From an uncultured Clostridia bacterium (GTDB lineage Bacteria > Bacillota > Clostridia > Oscillospirales > QAKW01): DNA of 64,000 nt. The DNA is taken from NCBI GenBank assembly GCA_944387895.1, contig CALXGQ010000009.1, positions 94,056 through 158,055 of the forward strand, in the 5' to 3' direction. The notes beneath the pieces were generated by a model. It saw only the letters and a program-made list of their open reading frames with translations, searched no databases and was not told where the DNA came from. The first letter of the stretch is position 1; each line of letters begins with the position of its first letter. The translations under genes were made by a program, and so were the position numbers. This document shows positions 30,043 through 64,000 of this stretch, piece after piece.

Positions 30043-30141
30043 ACTTTTCGCAAAAGGATCGCTCCTTTTGGGGGTTCCTTTTGCCCTTTGCAAGATTGTT
30101 CCATTCTTTCGCGCTCCCATCCTGTTCCCTCCATGCTTTTT

Positions 30142-30189
30142 GAGCCGCAAGAAGTTCTTTCTTGCAGCTCATTTTTATTTTGTTGTTTT
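30142..30189 (+). terminator. Intrinsic terminator (attenuator) directly upstream of the ABC-F RBS
   Basis: gagccgcaagaa-gttc-ttcttgcagctc (one mismatch) followed by atttttattttgttgtttt. The AGGAGG RBS of the ABC-F gene starts at 30191. Confidence 0.5.
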
Positions 30190-30205
30190 CAGGAGGAACA
30201 AAGCC

Positions 30206-31666
30206 ATGGCCATGATCAGCATTGAAAATCTGACCTTTTCCTATCCCACAAGCGCCGATCCCGTTTTCGACAACGTCAGCTTCCGGATCGACACCAATTG
30301 GAAGCTGGGCTTCATCGGGCGCAACGGCAAGGGGAAAACGACCCTGCTCCGCCTGCTGCTCGGCAGCTATCCCTATCGGGGCAAGATCGAAAGCCCCGTG
30401 GAATTCATCTACTTTCCCCACCCTGTTGAGGACAAAACGAAGAGCACGACGGAGATCCTGCGGGAAATCGCGCCGGAAGCGGAGGAATGGCAGCTCAGGA
30501 GAGAGCTTTCAGCCCTTGGCGTCCGCGAGTCGGCGCTTTTACGCCCCTTTGCGTCCCTCTCCGGCGGAGAGCAGACAAAGGTTTTGCTTGCCGCGCTTTT
30601 TTCAGAGGAGAGCCGGTTCCCGCTCATCGACGAGCCCACCAATCATCTGGACGCCGACGCCCGATCCGATGTGGCCGCCTATCTTGCAAGAAAAAAGGGG
30701 TTCATTCTGGTTTCTCACGACCGGCGGTTTCTGGACGGATGCGTCGATCATATTCTCTCCCTCAATCGCGCCACCCTTGAGGTGCAGAGCGGAAATTATT
30801 CCTCGTGGCAGGAAAACTTTGAGCGGCGCCAGAAATATGAATCCACCCAAAACGAACGGCTGCACAAAGATATTGCCCGCCTGAAAACCGCCGCGCAGCG
30901 CTCCTCCGGCTGGGCCGATCGGGTGGAAGCCTCGAAAATCGGAGCGGCGGACAAGGGGTTTATCGGCCATAAATCCGCCAAAATGATGAAACGGGCGAAA
31001 TCCATTCAGGCGCGTCAGCAGCGTGCCATCAAAGAAAAAACAACGCTGCTCAAAGACGCGGAACGGACCGACGCGCTGAAGCTGCGTCCCCTGACCTACC
31101 GCAGGGATCTGCTTGTATCCTTGAAGGGCGTGGCGCCGGTTTATTCCCGATCCCCCATAACCAGCCCGGTGTCCTTAGAGATTCGCGCCGGAGAGCGCGT
31201 TTTCCTTGATGGAAAAAACGGGAGCGGAAAAAGCAGCATTCTCCGCCTGCTGCTGAACCACCCCATCGACCACACCGGAAGCGTGGAGATCGGCTCCGGC
31301 CTGATCATTTCCTATGTGCCGCAGAGCGCCTCCTCTTTAAACGGAACGCTTTCCGCCTTTGCAAAAGAGAACCGGATCGATGAAAGTCTTTTTAAGACGA
31401 TACTCCGGAAGATGGATTTCAGCCGCCCGCAGCTGGAAAAGGATATGCAGGATTTTTCACAGGGGCAAAAGAAAAAGGTCCTGCTCGCAAAAAGCCTTTG
31501 CGAACAGGCGCACCTCTATATCTGGGATGAACCGCTCAACTACATTGACCTGTATTCCCGCGTCCAGATCGAACGGCTGATCGCAGAATTTTCTCCCACC
31601 ATGCTTTTGGTGGAGCACGACGCCGCCTTCCGGGAAGCAATTGCAACAAAAGTTATCCATCTCTAA
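30206..31666 (+). CDS. Lsa-type ABC-F ATPase (putative ribosomal-protection / antibiotic-resistance ARE family)
   Basis: Two ABC cassettes with no TM. IDTNWKLGFIGRNGKGKTTLLRLL, LSGGEQTKV, and a second GKNGSGKSS..FSQGQKKKV..YIWDEPLNYID. End-to-end collinear with Lsa(A)-like proteins as I remember them. Start at ATG 30206 after AGGAGG. Confidence 0.82.
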   Translation: MAMISIENLTFSYPTSADPVFDNVSFRIDTNWKLGFIGRNGKGKTTLLRLLLGSYPYRGKIESPVEFIYFPHPVEDKTKSTTEILREIAPEAEEWQLRRELSALGVRESALLRPFASLSGGEQTKVLLAALFSEESRFPLIDEPTNHLDADARSDVAAYLARKKGFILVSHDRRFLDGCVDHILSLNRATLEVQSGNYSSWQENFERRQKYESTQNERLHKDIARLKTAAQRSSGWADRVEASKIGAADKGFIGHKSAKMMKRAKSIQARQQRAIKEKTTLLKDAERTDALKLRPLTYRRDLLVSLKGVAPVYSRSPITSPVSLEIRAGERVFLDGKNGSGKSSILRLLLNHPIDHTGSVEIGSGLIISYVPQSASSLNGTLSAFAKENRIDESLFKTILRKMDFSRPQLEKDMQDFSQGQKKKVLLAKSLCEQAHLYIWDEPLNYIDLYSRVQIERLIAEFSPTMLLVEHDAAFREAIATKVIHL

Positions 31667-56428: not shown

Positions 56429-57241
56429 TTAAAATATCACCATCAATATAATCAGGCTCAGCGCTGCCAGCATCAGGGCAAGCGCCACCCAGTCGCGCCA
56501 GCTGAAAGAATAGACCTTATACCGCGTGCGTCCCTCGCCGCCGTGATAGCAGCGGCATTCCATGGCGTCTGCCAGCTCTTCCGCCCTGCGGAACGCAGAA
56601 ATCAGAAGAGGGATCAGGATCGGCACCAGCGCCCGGGCCCGGCGGACGATGTTGCCTGTTTCAAAATCTGCGCCCCGCGCCTTCTGGGCGTTGATGATCT
56701 TATCGGTTTCGTCGATCAGCGTTGGAATAAACCGCAGCGCAATGGTCATCATCATGGCAAGCTCGTGCACCGGGATGCGCAGCACCTTTAAGGGACGGAA
56801 CAGCCGCTCCATGGCGTCGGTCAGCATGACCGGGCTGGTGGTATAGGTCAGATAAGAGGTTCCCAAAATCAGCAGGATGATCCGGATGATCATGAAAAGC
56901 GCGTTGCGCACGCCCTCGGCCTTGAGCCACCCCAGCCAGGATATGCCGGGAAAGAGCGGCTCGCCCCCGCCATACAGAATATTGAAAAAAGCAGTAAAAA
57001 CAATGATGAATATCAGCGATTTCAGGCCGCGGAACACCACCCGCAGAGAGATCCCGGAAAAGGCAACCACCAGCCCCATCAGCGCACCAATCACCAGAAA
57101 GCCCCAAAAGTCGGGAACCAGAAAAAGCGCCACAACATAGAGAAGCGTCAGCAGCAGCTTCATTCGCGGATCCAGGCGGTGAACAAAGGAATTTCCCGGA
57201 AAAAACTGACCGATGGTCACATCCTTAAGCATGCTGATCAC
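56429..57241 (-). CDS. ecfT: ECF transporter transmembrane (T) component
   Basis: SFVHRLDPRMKLL, ALRFIPTL..ETDKIINAQKARGADF (the two Ala-Arg-Gly coupling helices). Confidence 0.9.
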   Translation of the reverse strand: MISMLKDVTIGQFFPGNSFVHRLDPRMKLLLTLLYVVALFLVPDFWGFLVIGALMGLVVAFSGISLRVVFRGLKSLIFIIVFTAFFNILYGGGEPLFPGISWLGWLKAEGVRNALFMIIRIILLILGTSYLTYTTSPVMLTDAMERLFRPLKVLRIPVHELAMMMTIALRFIPTLIDETDKIINAQKARGADFETGNIVRRARALVPILIPLLISAFRRAEELADAMECRCYHGGEGRTRYKVYSFSWRDWVALALMLAALSLIILMVIF

Positions 57242-58091
57242 CGTCCTTCCCCAGCAGCCGCATCAGCTCGGCCTTGCCCTGCTCGATTGTATAAACATTG
57301 CGGGAAACCGGATATCCCTTTTCCTGAAGCGCAATGAAAACCTTGGTGATATGGGGGACGTCCAGACCCATCTGAATCAATTCCTCCGTCCGATCAAAAA
57401 CCTCCGAAACCGATGCGTGCATGGCGCACCGGCCGTGGTTCATCACGAGAATGGAATTGGTATTGCGGCTGATATCCTCCATGGAATGAGAGACCAGCAG
57501 AACCGTGCTCCGGGTTTCCCTGTGATAGTCCCGGATCCGGCTGAGAATCTCATCTCTGCCGCGGGGGTCCAATCCGGCGGCAGGCTCATCTAAAATCAGC
57601 ACCTTTGGCTCCAGCGCCATCACGCCGGCAATGGCCACCCGCCTTTTCTGCCCGCCGGAAAGATCAAAGGGAGATTTTTCCAGAATCGAGCGACTCAGCC
57701 CCACAAAATCCAACGCTTTCTTTACTCTTTTATCAATTTCTTCGCCGGAAAGACCCATGTTTTTGGGGCCGAAGGCGATATCCTTATAAACCGTTTCTTC
57801 AAAAAGCTGATGCTCCGGATATTGAAAGACCAGGCCGACGTCGAACCGGGTTTGAATACGGGTTTTCTTTTCCTCGCTCCAAAGATCATGCCCATCGATC
57901 AGGATCCGCCCGGAAGTGGGCTTCAGAATCGCGTTGAAATGGGAGATCAGCGTGCTTTTCCCGGACCCGGTATGCCCGATCACGCCAACATAGTCGCCCT
58001 TCTCGATATGGATATTGATATCCTCGATCGCCGTGATTTCAAAGGGCGTACCGATGCCGTAGGTATAGGTGAGATGCTCTGTTTTGATCAT
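57225..58091 (-). CDS. ecfA2: ECF transporter ATPase EcfA2
   Basis: GHTGSGKSTL, LSGGQKRRVAIAGV, ILDEPAAGLDP. Operon order is ecfA1-ecfA2-ecfT-truA. Confidence 0.9.
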   Translation of the reverse strand: MIKTEHLTYTYGIGTPFEITAIEDINIHIEKGDYVGVIGHTGSGKSTLISHFNAILKPTSGRILIDGHDLWSEEKKTRIQTRFDVGLVFQYPEHQLFEETVYKDIAFGPKNMGLSGEEIDKRVKKALDFVGLSRSILEKSPFDLSGGQKRRVAIAGVMALEPKVLILDEPAAGLDPRGRDEILSRIRDYHRETRSTVLLVSHSMEDISRNTNSILVMNHGRCAMHASVSEVFDRTEELIQMGLDVPHITKVFIALQEKGYPVSRNVYTIEQGKAELMRLLGKDGDQHA

Positions 58092-58945
58092 TTTTTGGCA
58101 CCTCCCAGCATTTTTTCAAGAACCTCCAGGCATTCCTCCACGCTCAAAACAGCGATGGGAACCTTGATATCCTCCTGCCTGAGAGCAAACATCAGCTCCG
58201 CGGTCTGAGGAACATCCAGCGAAAGGCTGTGCAGCAGGCCGACATTCTGAAAAACCTCCCGGGGCGTGCCGTCCAGAATGATTTCTCCCTCCCCCATTAC
58301 AACGACGCGATCCGCCTGAACGGCCTCGTCCATATAATGGGTGATCAGCACCACCGTGATTCCCTGCTCCCGGTTAAGGCGCCGAATGGTTTTCATCACT
58401 TCCCTGCGTCCCTGGGGATCCAGCATGGCGGTCGGCTCATCCAAAACAATGCACCGGGGACGCATCGCCAGAACGCCTGCGATCGCCACCCGCTGTTTTT
58501 GCCCGCCGGAAAGGCGGTGCGGCGCATGATGGCGGTATTTTGTCATCCCAACCAGTTCCAGCGCTTCATCCACGCGCTGCACCATCTCCGGATAGGGTAC
58601 GCCCAGATTCTCCAGCGCAAAGGCCACATCCTCGTCCACAACCGTTGCGATCAGCTGATTATCCGGATTCTGAAACACCATCCCCACATTCCGGCGGATC
58701 TCCAGCAGATTCTGCTCCTCCGACGCGTCCATATTCATCACTTTCACACTTCCGCTTTCCGCTTTCAGCAGTCCGTTGAAATGCTTGGCAAGGGTGCTCT
58801 TCCCGCAGCCGTTATGGCCGAGTATCGCCAAAAATTCCCCTTCCTCGATGTCCAGAGAAACGTCGTGAAGCGCCGGACTTGATGGATTTCCATCTTCCTC
58901 AGGATAGGAAAAACTCAATTGTGAAACTTCAATGATTTTTGCCAT
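58088..58945 (-). CDS. ecfA1: ECF transporter ATPase EcfA1
   Basis: GHNGCGKSTL, LSGGQKQRVAIAGV, VLDEPTAMLDP. Confidence 0.9.
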   Translation of the reverse strand: MAKIIEVSQLSFSYPEEDGNPSSPALHDVSLDIEEGEFLAILGHNGCGKSTLAKHFNGLLKAESGSVKVMNMDASEEQNLLEIRRNVGMVFQNPDNQLIATVVDEDVAFALENLGVPYPEMVQRVDEALELVGMTKYRHHAPHRLSGGQKQRVAIAGVLAMRPRCIVLDEPTAMLDPQGRREVMKTIRRLNREQGITVVLITHYMDEAVQADRVVVMGEGEIILDGTPREVFQNVGLLHSLSLDVPQTAELMFALRQEDIKVPIAVLSVEECLEVLEKMLGGAKK

Positions 58946-59809
58946 TTAATCCTCCGAGAGCCATCGTGCTGCCGATCCGGACGGAAAATCCATTCCATCG
59001 GCTGTGCGCAGCCCGATCTCTCCGCTTTCAAAGCGGCCGCCGAGCCCTTTCGGGAGCGTCAGCCGCAGAAGATACTCCATTACCGCCGCAGAAAGGCCGG
59101 TGGAATAGGAGTTCAGAACAAAAAACAAAGGCCGCGGCGATAGCAGCCGCATAACCCGCGTCATAAGCGGATAAAGGGTTTCCTCCAGCTGCCAGACCTC
59201 ACCGCCCGGTCCGCGCCCGTAGGAAGGGGGATCCATGACAATGCCGTCGTAGCGATTCCCGCGGCGGTTTTCCCGCTCCACAAATTTCATGCAGTCGTCC
59301 ACCAGATAGCGGATCGGGCGGTCGGCCACGCCGCAGAGAACGGCGTTTTCCTTTGCCCACTGCACCATACCCTTGGACGCGTCCACATGAACCACCGAAG
59401 CGCCTTCCCTGGCGCAGGCCATCGTGGCGCCGCCGGTATAGGCAAAAAGATTCAAAACCTTCACAGGTCGGCCGGCTTTGCGGATCTGCTCCCGCATAAA
59501 ATCCCAATTGACCGCCTGCTCCGGAAAAATGCCCGTATGCTTGAAATTCATGGGTTTGACCTGAAAGGTCAGATCCCGGTAGCTGATTTTCCAGCTTTCA
59601 GGGAGCGACCGGATCTCCCAATGCCCGCCACCGCTGCCGGAGCGATGATAAACGGCGTTGGGCGCTTTCCAGCCCTCATGCCTTTTTGCGCTCTGCCAAA
59701 TCGCCTGCGGATCGGGCCGCACCAGAATATAATTTCCCCAGCGCTCCAGCCGCGCGCCGCCGGAGGTATCCAGAAGCGCGTAATCTTTCCATTGGTCTGC
59801 AATCCACAT
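58946..59809 (-). CDS. Class I SAM-dependent (rRNA-type, PF10672-like) methyltransferase
   Basis: LNLFAYTGGATMACA, HVDASKG, and DGIVMDPPSYGRG. Confidence 0.72.
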   Translation of the reverse strand: MWIADQWKDYALLDTSGGARLERWGNYILVRPDPQAIWQSAKRHEGWKAPNAVYHRSGSGGGHWEIRSLPESWKISYRDLTFQVKPMNFKHTGIFPEQAVNWDFMREQIRKAGRPVKVLNLFAYTGGATMACAREGASVVHVDASKGMVQWAKENAVLCGVADRPIRYLVDDCMKFVERENRRGNRYDGIVMDPPSYGRGPGGEVWQLEETLYPLMTRVMRLLSPRPLFFVLNSYSTGLSAAVMEYLLRLTLPKGLGGRFESGEIGLRTADGMDFPSGSAARWLSED

Positions 59810-62073: not shown

Positions 62074-62114
62074 GCAAAAAAGCGCCGGAGCTAAGAAAAT
62101 CTTTGCTCCGGCGC
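62074..62114 (-). terminator. Intrinsic terminator closing the kinase-PqqD-peptidase operon
   Basis: Minus strand reads gcgccggagc-aaagattttcttag-ctccggcgc followed by ttttttgctg. It lies 6 nt after the peptidase stop. Confidence 0.62.
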
Positions 62115-62119
62115 CGGCC

Positions 62120-62584
62120 TTAAAGCACCATGCTTCTTTTGATTTTACCGATGCATCGGCGAAGCAGAGCCTTGCTCCGCAAGATCGCCGCCCGCACCCA
62201 GAAAAAATCGCACCACAAGTGAACGTAAAACCGGTACCGGCGGTCTGAAACCTCTATGGTTTTCCCGTCCCGAACCACCGCCGAGAGAACGCCGAGGATC
62301 TGCTCGTCTGTGATTCCGTATTCCCGCTGCCAGCAATGATCGCCGCAGAGGACATAGTCGTTTTCCCGCACCTTCAGGATCCGGTGAAGGACATAGGAGC
62401 CGTCCTTCCGTTTATACAGCGCGACGTCATATTTCCCGCACCGCCCGGCCTGCTTTTTCTCCAGAACGATCAGATCACGTTTCTGGCGCAGAAGGGGGAG
62501 CATACTGGTGCCGACCTGGGTGAAAACCAGCTTCCCCCGGGCGTTCAGCTCCTCTTCATAGCTGATCAGATTACGCTCATTCAT
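62120..62584 (-). CDS. S24/S26-family serine peptidase (signal-peptidase/LexA-like fold)
   Basis: GTSMLPLL nucleophile motif, DLIVLEK..YDVALYKR, and HRILKV (candidate general-base Lys). Start MNERN at 62584 overlaps the PqqD stop (ATGAATGA). The ORF is open to 62629. Confidence 0.68.
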   Translation of the reverse strand: MNERNLISYEEELNARGKLVFTQVGTSMLPLLRQKRDLIVLEKKQAGRCGKYDVALYKRKDGSYVLHRILKVRENDYVLCGDHCWQREYGITDEQILGVLSAVVRDGKTIEVSDRRYRFYVHLWCDFFWVRAAILRSKALLRRCIGKIKRSMVL

Positions 62585-62843
62585 CCAACGCCTCAATTTC
62601 ACGCAGCTGATCCAGAACCCGGGCAACATCGCGATCCGCCGTTTGGCGATCTACTGCAAAGCGGTCGGTCACCGCTTCGGCGATTGCCTCCGGGGTCGTT
62701 TCCTTTTTCAGGCAATCGATCATAAAGGCCGCCGTGCGGTTGCTGCGCACCAGTCCGTGGAACCGCTCCGCCATCTCCCCCACGGCGATCATCAGCGATT
62801 CGCCGTCTGACTCGTGAATAACAAACCCTTCCTTGAGCTTCAT
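62577..62843 (-). CDS. PqqD-family (RiPP recognition element-like) small protein
   Basis: 88 aa. Pattern GESLMIAVGE...GLVRSNRTAAFMIDCLKKETTPEAIAEAVTDRFAVDRQTADRDVARVLDQLRE matches the PqqD winged-helix layout as I remember it. Confidence 0.68.
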   Translation of the reverse strand: MKLKEGFVIHESDGESLMIAVGEMAERFHGLVRSNRTAAFMIDCLKKETTPEAIAEAVTDRFAVDRQTADRDVARVLDQLREIEALDE

Positions 62844-63580
62844 TTTGCTTCATCCTCCCGGCGCTCCCGCGCCATTCCCGCATATGCCACTCTGGCCGCT
62901 TCCGGCTCCATATTGCATCCCAGCCGATAAAACCGCGTCCCCTTGGAAAAACGATCCAGCAGCTTCAAATAGCACGCCATCTTCTCCGCCCCGGCCGGGC
63001 GCTGGCTTTGCTCCAGCAGAACCGGCAGAGCCTCCCGCCCGGAAACCGGCTCGATATGATTGACCGTATCCCGGGTCAACAGACAAACGCCCCGCAGAGG
63101 AACGCTGATATTGCTGCTCAGCCGGTGCTTTCCATCCCAGGGCGTTCCGCAGACCCAAATGCCGTCCTCCGTTATTTTCAAAAGCGGCTTATCATCGTTG
63201 ACCATCTGAACGCGATCCCCAAAGACCGCGCGCCAGAGGGCGACGTGGGTTGATTTCCCGGTTCCGCTGGGGGCGGTGAACAGGTAGCCCGCGCCGTCCA
63301 GAGCGAGGGCGGAGCCGTGAAACAGCATGATATCCTCGCTCAGCAGACATTCCGCGATCTTTCGATACAGCGCCAGCTTTTCCAGATACGGCGCCAAAAA
63401 CGGGCGTGGCGGCGAGCCGCCGCGAAAAAAGGAGCGCTCCTTTTCAATCTCTTCCGGTGAAAGGGCGATCTGAAATGCAGCCGGTTCCTCGGTGATATAA
63501 TCCCGGCAAAAGTCCCGGGTTGATGGATAAACCGACGAAACCCCGAGAACCTTCCCGGCCAGTTTGATTCTAAATTCCAT
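62840..63580 (-). CDS. HPr-kinase-like P-loop protein (ScmC / lasso-precursor-kinase-like)
   Basis: 246 aa with LFHGSALALDGAGYLFTAPSGTGKSTH (Walker A) and VNDDKP..GTPWDGK. ATGA overlap with the PqqD gene; GGGGAG RBS. Confidence 0.6.
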   Translation of the reverse strand: MEFRIKLAGKVLGVSSVYPSTRDFCRDYITEEPAAFQIALSPEEIEKERSFFRGGSPPRPFLAPYLEKLALYRKIAECLLSEDIMLFHGSALALDGAGYLFTAPSGTGKSTHVALWRAVFGDRVQMVNDDKPLLKITEDGIWVCGTPWDGKHRLSSNISVPLRGVCLLTRDTVNHIEPVSGREALPVLLEQSQRPAGAEKMACYLKLLDRFSKGTRFYRLGCNMEPEAARVAYAGMARERREDEAK

Positions 63581-63594
63581 GCCGCTCCCCCAGC

Positions 63595-64000
63595 TTAATC
63601 AAAAGGGACAAAAGGCAGCTCGACATCGCTTGATCCGGAATCCCCGGTATCATCAGCATTGCCGGCGTCGCCAGAATTGCCGGTATCTCCGGCGTCCCCG
63701 GCGTCGCCGTTATCATCGGAATTGCCGGAATCCGGCACGTCCTCCTGACCGTTTTCCCCATCCGAAGTAGAATCTTCCGGATCATCCGGCTGATTCGTCT
63801 GGGAAGAATCAGAGGAAGTGGCATCATCCAGATCGGTTTCAGAGGAAGGAGCGCCGGAATCCTCGCCGCTCTGCCCCGCCCCGGAATCGCCCGAAGCTTC
63901 AGAACCGCCGCCGGAGCTGCCGGAAGCCGATCCGCTGCCGGAGCCGCCGGAGCTGCCGCCGGCATCGGCGCCCTGCTCCTCCGACGAAGAATCCTCGCCG
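63595..64000 (-). CDS. C-terminal 134 codons of a Ser/Gly/Asp-rich, strongly acidic low-complexity protein (gene continues beyond the window)
   Basis: Own codon-by-codon translation of a frame not in the ORF track: GEDSSSEEQGADAGGSSGGSGSGS...GDAGDAGDTGNSGDAGNADDTGDSGSSDVELPFVPFD*. Open from the window edge to TAA at 63597..63595. Normal third-position codon pattern. Confidence 0.6.
   Translation of the reverse strand, partial: GEDSSSEEQGADAGGSSGGSGSGSASGSSGGGSEASGDSGAGQSGEDSGAPSSETDLDDATSSDSSQTNQPDDPEDSTSDGENGQEDVPDSGNSDDNGDAGDAGDTGNSGDAGNADDTGDSGSSDVELPFVPFD

Follow-up and report, generated by a model that had tools for sequence, protein, structure and literature searches.

A reduced, lipoprotein-linked operon, probably of the linear polyphosphorylated peptide type, in an uncultured Clostridia bacterium

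The DNA analysed here, a stretch of 64 kb from contig CALXGQ010000009.1 of an uncultured Clostridia bacterium (hereafter the window, meaning the stretch at its full length), carries near its end a minus-strand operon of three genes, i.e. a P-loop kinase gene, a gene for a PqqD-like protein and a serine peptidase gene. We put the probability at about 80 % that this operon is a reduced copy of the maturation module for 'linear polyphosphorylated peptides' (LPP), that it belongs to a large Clostridial branch of such modules and that a lipoprotein gene is co-transcribed with it.

LPP were described in May 2026 (Popov et al., Nat Commun 2026;17:6633, PMC13381572), their biosynthetic gene clusters having been found via a peptidase that is a signal peptidase I (SpI) of archaeal type, and the family was defined from ~126 mostly Bacilli clusters (PMC13381572). 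The conserved core, in the order A-K-B-S-D-N, is that of Paenibacillus alginolyticus DSM5050 and other Bacilli (PMC13381572), with LppA being the precursor, LppK an HprK-like kinase, LppB a discrete RiPP recognition element (RRE; RiPP, a peptide made on the ribosome and modified after translation), LppS an SpI-like peptidase, LppD an MsbA-like exporter and LppN a nucleoside triphosphate (NTP) transferase (PMC13381572). The dataset, taken from NCBI in February 2019, held a handful of Clostridia in the minor network clusters 4 and 9, with their precursors given as 'ND', and the text of the paper mentions neither lipoproteins nor Clostridia (PMC13381572). The original prediction made for the window had assigned the trio to no described RiPP class; this no longer stands, as the same set in the same gene order was published in 2026 as LPP (PMC13381572).

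Organization and boundaries of the operon

Re-reading of the sequence placed the three tandem minus-strand genes at 62840-63580, 62577-62843 and 62120-62584. The TGA of the kinase gene and the ATG of the 88-aa PqqD gene share ATGA (62840-62843), while the PqqD stop and the peptidase start (ATG at 62584) share ATGAATGA (62577-62584), so that the translational coupling originally proposed from these two overlaps was reproduced at all coordinates. The features of the region are as follows.

62840..63580, minus strand, lppK-like P-loop kinase, 246 aa, with the Walker A motif APSGTGKST
62577..62843, minus strand, lppB-like discrete RRE (PqqD domain, PF05402), 88 aa
62120..62584, minus strand, lppS-like archaeal-type signal peptidase I (S26B), 154 aa, assigned by homology to LppS
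63595..64000, minus strand, 3' part of the lipoprotein gene (last 134 codons and stop), the 5' end lying past the window
63581..63594, minus strand, 14-nt spacer from the lipoprotein stop to the kinase start, with a GGGGGAG ribosome-binding site read from the sequence
62075..62115, minus strand, intrinsic-terminator-like hairpin (62081-62115) with a U-run (62075-62080), closing the operon before ruvC

The peptidase is taken to be 154 aa long, running from 62584 to 62120, because its start ATG overlaps the PqqD stop; the longest open reading frame (ORF), of 169 aa, over-calls the start, and the 154-aa start agrees with the gene call on a near-identical contig. On the other side of the operon, the lipoprotein stop TAA (63595-63597) lies 14 nt before the kinase ATG, which bears out the gap to a Ser/Gly/Asp-rich gene noted previously and identifies this gene as one for a lipoprotein. 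Since the 14-nt spacer holds no terminator, we infer co-transcription of the lipoprotein and kinase genes, and the four genes, i.e. those for the lipoprotein, the kinase (K), the RRE (B) and the peptidase (S), would then be one transcription unit.

At its downstream end, the hairpin and T-run already recognized before ruvCAB were confirmed by RNA folding, with a free energy of -28.1 kcal/mol and z = -3.0, only 1 of 200 shuffled sequences folding equally well. A consensus terminator scan missed the 62081-62115 hairpin because its loop is longer than the limit of the scan. The terminator is followed by ruvC, ruvA and ruvB. The GC content is flat across the operon region (0.55-0.60), and there is therefore no sign of a recent island.

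The three enzymes

BLASTP aligned the window peptidase with LppS of P. alginolyticus (WP_029196374.1) at 31 % identity over 108 aa (E=4e-14). GTSM and HR fall on their counterparts in LppS and, by our reading of the alignment, D93 of LppS lies opposite E88 of the window protein. Its predicted catalytic residues are Ser27 (GTSM) and His67 (HR); it also has the acidic Asp82 and Glu88 and a hydrophobic/basic C-terminal helix. In an alignment of 67 homologues, G25, S27, M28, P30, D53, H67 and R68 were invariant and D82 and E88 were conserved in 98 and 97 %, respectively, whereas the Lys of HRILK(V) was kept in only 47 %. Because the His is invariant and this Lys is not, we regard the enzyme as a Ser/His peptidase of family S26B and not as a Ser/Lys peptidase of family S24. 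Weak local matches to hidden Markov models (HMMs) were obtained with sigpep_I_arch (TIGR02228, E=1.5e-4), a Ni-SOD maturation protease and SipW. An S24 (LexA-like) identity was thus rejected, as the top HMMs were of signal peptidase I and the Ser/Lys dyad is not that of the family. Of the S24/S26 assignment first given to this protein, the S26 half therefore survives, narrowed to an S26B homologue of LppS, and the S24 half does not. Like LppS, the protein is archaeal-type signal peptidase I-like and has a Ser/His/acid catalytic set.

The 88-aa protein matches PF05402 (PqqD) with E=7e-13 (49 bits, cutoff 23.4), in agreement with its earlier designation as a PqqD-like RRE. It also matches the lasso_PqqD_Strm model (E=5.5e-11), and among proteins of solved structure it is nearest to the lasso B1 proteins TfuB1 and TbiB1. 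When the profile of its family was compared with the published LppB, hhalign gave a probability of 86 % (E=5e-6) over 73 columns, end to end. As for LppB, we thus find a discrete PqqD-type RRE next to a peptidase.

The kinase, running from 63580 to 62840 with the Walker A motif TAPSGTGKSTH, had been called HPr-kinase-like, which proved to be correct in kind, i.e. at the level of the fold, but not at the level of sequence models. An AlphaFold2 model built with 25 homologues (predicted local distance difference test 91.2, predicted template modelling score 0.87) matched ATP-dependent phosphoenolpyruvate carboxykinases (PEPCKs) in Foldseek with E=5e-7 and HprK/P with E about 1e-4. A PEPCK/HprK fold, that of the P-loop superfamily that includes HPr kinase, is therefore supported for the modelled protein at fold level. 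In the Pfam scan PF07475 (HprK C-terminal) did not match at E<=0.1, so that its likeness to HprK/P is one of fold only; ScmC (TIGR04249) gave E=0.0033 and 16.8 bits (cutoff 125), and the NCBIfam models for HprK-related kinases also stayed below threshold (12.5 bits, cutoff 200). The profile of the kinase family, searched against the sequences of the PDB, found no HprK and matched nothing. For homologues of the kinase (at least 6859 in a large protein collection) the existing assignment is to a recent Pfam family, PF27840 'ScmC', and the window kinase keeps all 49 invariant columns of the family. It resembles an LppK-type kinase in its Walker A motif, its fold, its PF27840 homologues and its position upstream of the RRE.

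Related loci in Clostridia

Loci of kinase homologues were surveyed in two sets of 80, one from genomes and one from metagenomes, which are a part of all homologues. In species-representative genomes at least 595 kinase matches were confirmed, and among the matches listed nearly all loci were from rumen or gut Clostridia (Ruminococcus, Lachnospiraceae, Oscillospiraceae), with Ruminococcus flavefaciens Y1, Kandleria vitulina DSM 20405 and Porcipelethomonas ammoniilytica among the cultured carriers. In 63 of the 81 independent related loci, K, B and S shared a strand, far beyond chance and with K-B-S as the dominant order; the co-occurrence on which the original prediction depended is thus real, and the trio is co-conserved.

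Clustering of the neighbours revealed two more conserved downstream genes, one for an exporter with ABC_membrane and ABC_tran domains (~560 aa) and one for a PF14907 NTP_transf_5 protein (~385 aa). Among the 36 trio loci with full flanks, the exporter was present in 21 and the transferase in 22, while nine had neither, like the window. The earlier statement that there is no exporter and no short precursor consequently holds for the window but not for the family, which normally has both, plus an NTP transferase. The other absences listed for the visible region, i.e. those of a lasso cyclase (Asn-synthetase-like), a B2 protease, a YcaO protein and a lanthionine enzyme, extend to the family, as none of these is among the conserved neighbours of the more than 80 loci.

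Short leader-peptide ORFs were found in 43 of 85 loci, in a total of 60 copies and up to six in tandem. Their N-terminus reads M.K..YExPEMEVxEFExEDVITTS, and the C-terminus is short, variable and acidic. Loci with the complete set have one to five such precursors along with K, B, S, the ABC exporter and the NTP_transf_5 protein. No Pfam or NCBIfam model covers these Clostridial precursor peptides, and their leader sequence strings were not found in the literature. The published LppA leader is YxxPxVLxHQxIxFETxxS, in which the aromatic residue of [Y/W]xxPx(hydrophobic) is decisive for the RRE (PMC13381572). The HMM of the Clostridial leaders picks up the YxxPE and xFET blocks of two published LppA, with ~3 residues less spacing between the blocks, and the conserved Ser of the Clostridial leaders stands 7 residues after FET, as against 3 in LppA.

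Searches for close relatives of the window itself gave little. There was no exact-product record for the window kinase, the only near-identical contig was one of 2.9 kb, an exact 46-nt pattern had no match in metagenome contigs, and a protein-guided metagenome scan gave nothing above 59 % identity.

Several of the related loci had further features. The leader-peptide genes are often immediately preceded by one for a large secreted protein (L004:7897-9669 and L007:2356-4119, also in L013, L022, L026, L030, L031 and L070); two of these proteins that were scanned contain Transglut_core (PF01841, 32.5 bits, cutoff 23) and a common C-terminal domain, and one other contains DUF6273. Outside the cell, such proteins could act as partners of the peptides or process them. 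Radical-SAM genes (Radical_SAM and Fer4_12) lie downstream of S in L044, L056 (7862-9253), L058 and L066 and upstream in L049, L054 and L055, and the leader peptides of such loci have Cys-containing cores, e.g. ...DIIFASAGSCECVAETA, which suggests hybrid LPP-like/radical-SAM pathways acting on the same leader. In L001 (9264-13312) the order is PqqD, a leader peptide of 112 aa that contains repeats of TPTPEVTQEVTT, K, S, a 316-aa protein and NTP_transf_5, and the locus is situated amid serine recombinases and transposases, suggesting that it is carried on a mobile element. Finally, in the metagenome loci L120, L139, L147, L155, L158 and L159 the leaders read YxKAQMEV, with Ala for the Pro of YxxP, and are located downstream of the kinase and followed by longer, Cys- and Gly-rich cores.

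The upstream lipoprotein and its tail

The near-identical contig (L005, from Logan; 2.9 kb, 99 % identical and from an independent sample) has the same four genes, all intact, followed by ruvC. There the whole upstream gene encodes a lipoprotein of 188 aa that starts with MKKITAALLLAAFLMLAASGC and has a lipobox Cys, followed by ~150 residues of S/G/D/E-rich low complexity and a C-terminal tail, ...DSGSSDVELPFVPFD. In the window the lipoprotein ends in ...DVELPFVPFD, preceded by SS. It is matched by no Pfam family and has no YxxP leader. A GC-rich hairpin with a T-run (TTGGGCGCCGCCGCAAGGCGGCACCCAATTTTT, L005:25-60) lies ~0.6 kb past the end of the window, just upstream of the lipoprotein gene, and a gene of no assigned kind ends at this hairpin.

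Membrane-anchored low-complexity proteins ending in [IV]ELPF[VI]Pxx were present in ~19 related genome loci. The ELPF[VI]P proteins were found by a search for the tail motif, a stricter filter on lipobox and composition having recovered only a minority of them. Examples of the tails are IELPFVPAF, VELPFVPIN, IKLPFVPAV, IELPFIPAG, NELPFIPIS and DELPW[IL]PA, and most of the genes lie 1-25 nt upstream of the kinase gene on the same strand. In L009 (9424-10726) and L035 (9537-10717) an ELPF[VI]P lipoprotein directly precedes the kinase homologue, with no RRE or peptidase nearby; the kinase is followed by a LytTR-like gene in L009 and by genes on the opposite strand in L035.

The tails resemble the C-termini of leader peptides encoded at the same locus, as in the following pairs, where the leader peptide of the L006 type is MTMKEVYETPEMEVVEFETEDIITASGELPFVPAE.

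L006: leader-peptide C-terminus ...SGELPFVPAE; lipoprotein tail ...IELPFVPAF
L030: leader-peptide C-terminus DSFHIIEEGPIKLPFIPAD; lipoprotein tail DDFHIVTEAPIELPFIPAG
L037: leader-peptide C-terminus DELPWVPANE; lipoprotein tails DELPWIPA and DELPWLPA
L069: leader-peptide C-terminus PPEGKQVDPFAG; lipoprotein tail SPEGELLDPFE (PEG..DPF in both)
L023: leader-peptide C-terminus ...ITMPEI; lipoprotein tail ...IELPEI

When tails were scored against cores, the mean ungapped BLOSUM score was 26.5 within the same locus and 19.1 across loci (permutation p~2e-4; 12 loci, two of them close relatives). The attention that had been drawn to the tail ...SGSSDVELPFVPFD thus receives comparative support, both from the ~19 loci with an ELPF[VI]P tail and from the match to precursor C-termini of the same locus. 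In an independent metagenome set, none of 22 kinase clusters had an ELPF[VI]P-tailed protein, which makes the tailed protein an accessory that part of the family has. The motifs ELPFVP and ELPFIP were absent from the searchable literature.

Two further interpretations of the tail were set aside. Read as a degenerate [Y/W]xxPx(hydrophobic) RRE motif, the tail (V/I-E-L-P-F-V) fits in its Pro and its hydrophobic residue and is missing the decisive aromatic. It is also reminiscent of PapR-type C-terminal pheromones (ADLPFEF), and the locus has no RRNPP receptor.

Proposed function and alternative explanations

In the published system, LppK adds up to four phosphates on core Ser3 in B. subtilis (PMC13381572), and LppS (S29, H68, D93) cuts after T-1 only when LppB presents the precursor (PMC13381572); LppN was inactive in B. 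subtilis, and the final product and the function of LPP are still unknown (PMC13381572). By analogy with this Paenibacillus system, the window RRE would bind the YxxPx(hydrophobic) motif of a leader, the kinase would add at least one phosphate to a conserved Ser just after the leader, in the Clostridial peptides most likely the Ser of DVITTS, and the peptidase, with the substrate presented by the RRE, would cut after FET. The catalytic motifs are intact in all three enzymes.

Several points weigh against an LPP-type module. The Clostridial members are known from sequence alone, and since the spacing of their leaders differs from that of LppA, the sites of cleavage and phosphorylation are extrapolated. 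Pairwise BLASTP finds no similarity between the window RRE and LppB, and the likeness of the modelled kinase to LppK is drawn from fold, family and gene order, with the HprK and ScmC sequence HMMs scoring far under their cutoffs. Moreover, an LppA-type leader ORF was sought in the 64-kb window by regex and with the leader HMM and found by neither, and there is no gene for an MsbA-like exporter or for NTP_transf_5. With no precursor, exporter or transferase visible, the published pathway cannot be completed from the window.

As for the exporter, the ABC matches in the window are to two EcfA-like ATPase genes at 57225-58945 and to a distant gene at 30068-31666. The ABC match flagged near the trio was rejected, being actually that to the ATPases, two adjacent proteins of 285-288 aa on the minus strand that look EcfA-type by motif and belong to core genes unrelated to the operon. 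Between them and ruvB lies an ORF of 287 aa (58946-59809, minus strand), an ordinary core gene.

Because the window is without precursor, exporter and transferase, the substrate of an LPP-type module would be a leader peptide from another part of the genome or, less conventionally, the lipoprotein, whose ...SS-DVELPFVPFD end is similar to core peptides made by related loci. As candidates, the lipoprotein tail and a distal lppA are roughly comparable, a non-functional remnant being less likely.

If the enzymes act on the lipoprotein, its C-terminal ~12-20 residues would be a leaderless, LPP-core-like substrate that is phosphorylated and possibly clipped (e.g. between ...DSGSS and DVELPFVPFD) before or during Sec/Lsp export. 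This is conceivable, and the window offers no other candidate substrate; the ELPF[VI]P-anchored proteins of ~19 loci lie mostly 1-25 nt before the kinase gene, L009 and L035 retain only the lipoprotein and the kinase, and the tails co-vary with the cores of the same locus. We nevertheless regard it as rather doubtful, as the lipoprotein offers the RRE no YxxP leader, the Ser beside the tail is not conserved among the lipoproteins, the published LppS requires the complex of RRE and leader (PMC13381572), and it would be unusual for a Sec/Lsp-exported protein to be modified by cytoplasmic enzymes. In addition, the tailed protein is found in none of the 22 metagenome clusters, and a shared receptor or gene conversion could equally give the co-variation.

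A second alternative is that the trio is a functionless, decaying remnant of a full LPP cluster, given that three of the six canonical genes are missing, that nine of the 36 well-flanked trio loci are likewise without exporter and transferase and that LPP clusters are frequently gained and lost (PMC13381572). We consider this unlikely, since the ORFs are intact and translationally coupled, Walker A, S27, H67, D82, E88 and every invariant residue are kept, a clean ribosome-binding site and terminator persist, and the independent sample has the intact four-gene unit at 99 % identity.

That the genes are a fragment of a paeninodin-type lasso cluster, with cyclase, B2 and precursor just past the end of the window, is very improbable: although lasso B1 models and structures give the RRE its best scores and about one-third of the SpI-containing clusters of Bacilli adjoin lasso genes (PMC13381572), a cyclase or B2 is absent from the window region and from the genes conserved around the kinase in more than 80 Clostridial loci, an SpI-like protease fills the role of leader peptidase, and upstream on L005 there is a terminator-like hairpin and then the lipoprotein gene, with nothing lasso-like in the 0.7 kb past the window.

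Significance

The operon in the window is thus of the LPP kind, in a reduced, lipoprotein-linked and Clostridial form. It belongs to a branch from gut and rumen Clostridia that is much larger than the Bacilli-defined LPP set, as judged from the at least 6859 kinase homologues. What is new is, firstly, that reduced K-B-S operons with neither exporter nor transferase are common (nine of 36 well-flanked loci) and, secondly, that a co-transcribed lipoprotein has an ELPF[VI]P tail that co-varies with the cores of precursors from its own locus.

The part of the finding that merits attention is the connection with the lipoprotein tail. One might speculate, as an idea that we hold to be somewhat improbable, that the same functional peptide is reached by a second way, through the lipoprotein and without a leader. 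The ELPF[VI]P C-terminus would then be a membrane-tethered counterpart of the exported core, either matured by the kinase and peptidase or displayed on the surface as a ligand or decoy for the partner to which the free peptides are directed. If so, the minimal lipoprotein-K-B-S operon would be a system for the maturation or display of a protein tail and would give a first functional handle on the purpose of LPP-type peptides. It may be through the conserved C-terminal motif, and not phosphate alone, that these peptides act, whether free or membrane-tethered. If this idea fails, the locus is simply one more member of a known RiPP family.

Comparison with known systems

Like SipW, Sec11 and archaeal signal peptidase I (MEROPS S26B), the window peptidase has a nucleophile box, GxSMxP, an HR box and, following GD(N/H), an acidic residue, and the predicted cleavage, after small or hydroxyl residues, is also common to them. 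In contrast to SipW and Sec11, the 154-aa protein has a C-terminal hydrophobic helix and no N-terminal membrane anchor or signal-anchor topology, and its gene is coupled to those of an RRE and a kinase, whereas that of SipW is coupled to secreted matrix proteins.

SynChlorMet ScmC and the HprK-related kinases A/B of Haft's PqqD-linked systems (TIGR04249, TIGR04352, TIGR04355) are likewise P-loop proteins of the HprK/PEPCK superfamily with a PqqD-family neighbour. The window kinase, however, scores far below the NCBIfam cutoffs (16.8 vs 125 and 12.5 vs 200) and does not pass as a SynChlorMet ScmC, and the SCM radical-SAM/SPASM partners typical of SynChlorMet do not accompany the operon, nor is there in the window a radical-SAM gene like those of related loci.

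The phosphorylated lasso clusters of Bacillota of the paeninodin/pseudomycoidin type (A, C, B1, B2, D, K, N) come closer, having, as here, a discrete PqqD-type B1 that reads a leader of the [Y/W]xxP type, and a Ser-phosphorylating HprK-like kinase; an NTP transferase and an ABC exporter are common to them and the LPP-type family at large. The window system differs in being without lasso cyclase and transglutaminase-like B2 and in having an S26B leader peptidase, and its product is expected to be linear.

Compared with LPP as published, the window copy is without lppA, lppD and lppN, stands beside ruvCAB and not in a capsule region, and carries the attached ELPFVP-tailed lipoprotein, which the paper does not mention. 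The Clostridial leaders have a shorter YxxP-to-FET spacing and a conserved EDVITTS block, and their cores are of 8-25 aa and acidic, whereas LPP cores are Gly/Asn/Lys-rich. What LPP and the window have in common is the HprK-like kinase, the discrete RRE and the archaeal-type SpI-like peptidase, in the same order and with no macrolactam cyclase, and LPP share with the related Clostridial loci also an exporter of the MsbA type, NTP_transf_5 and precursors in which YxxP and FET occur.

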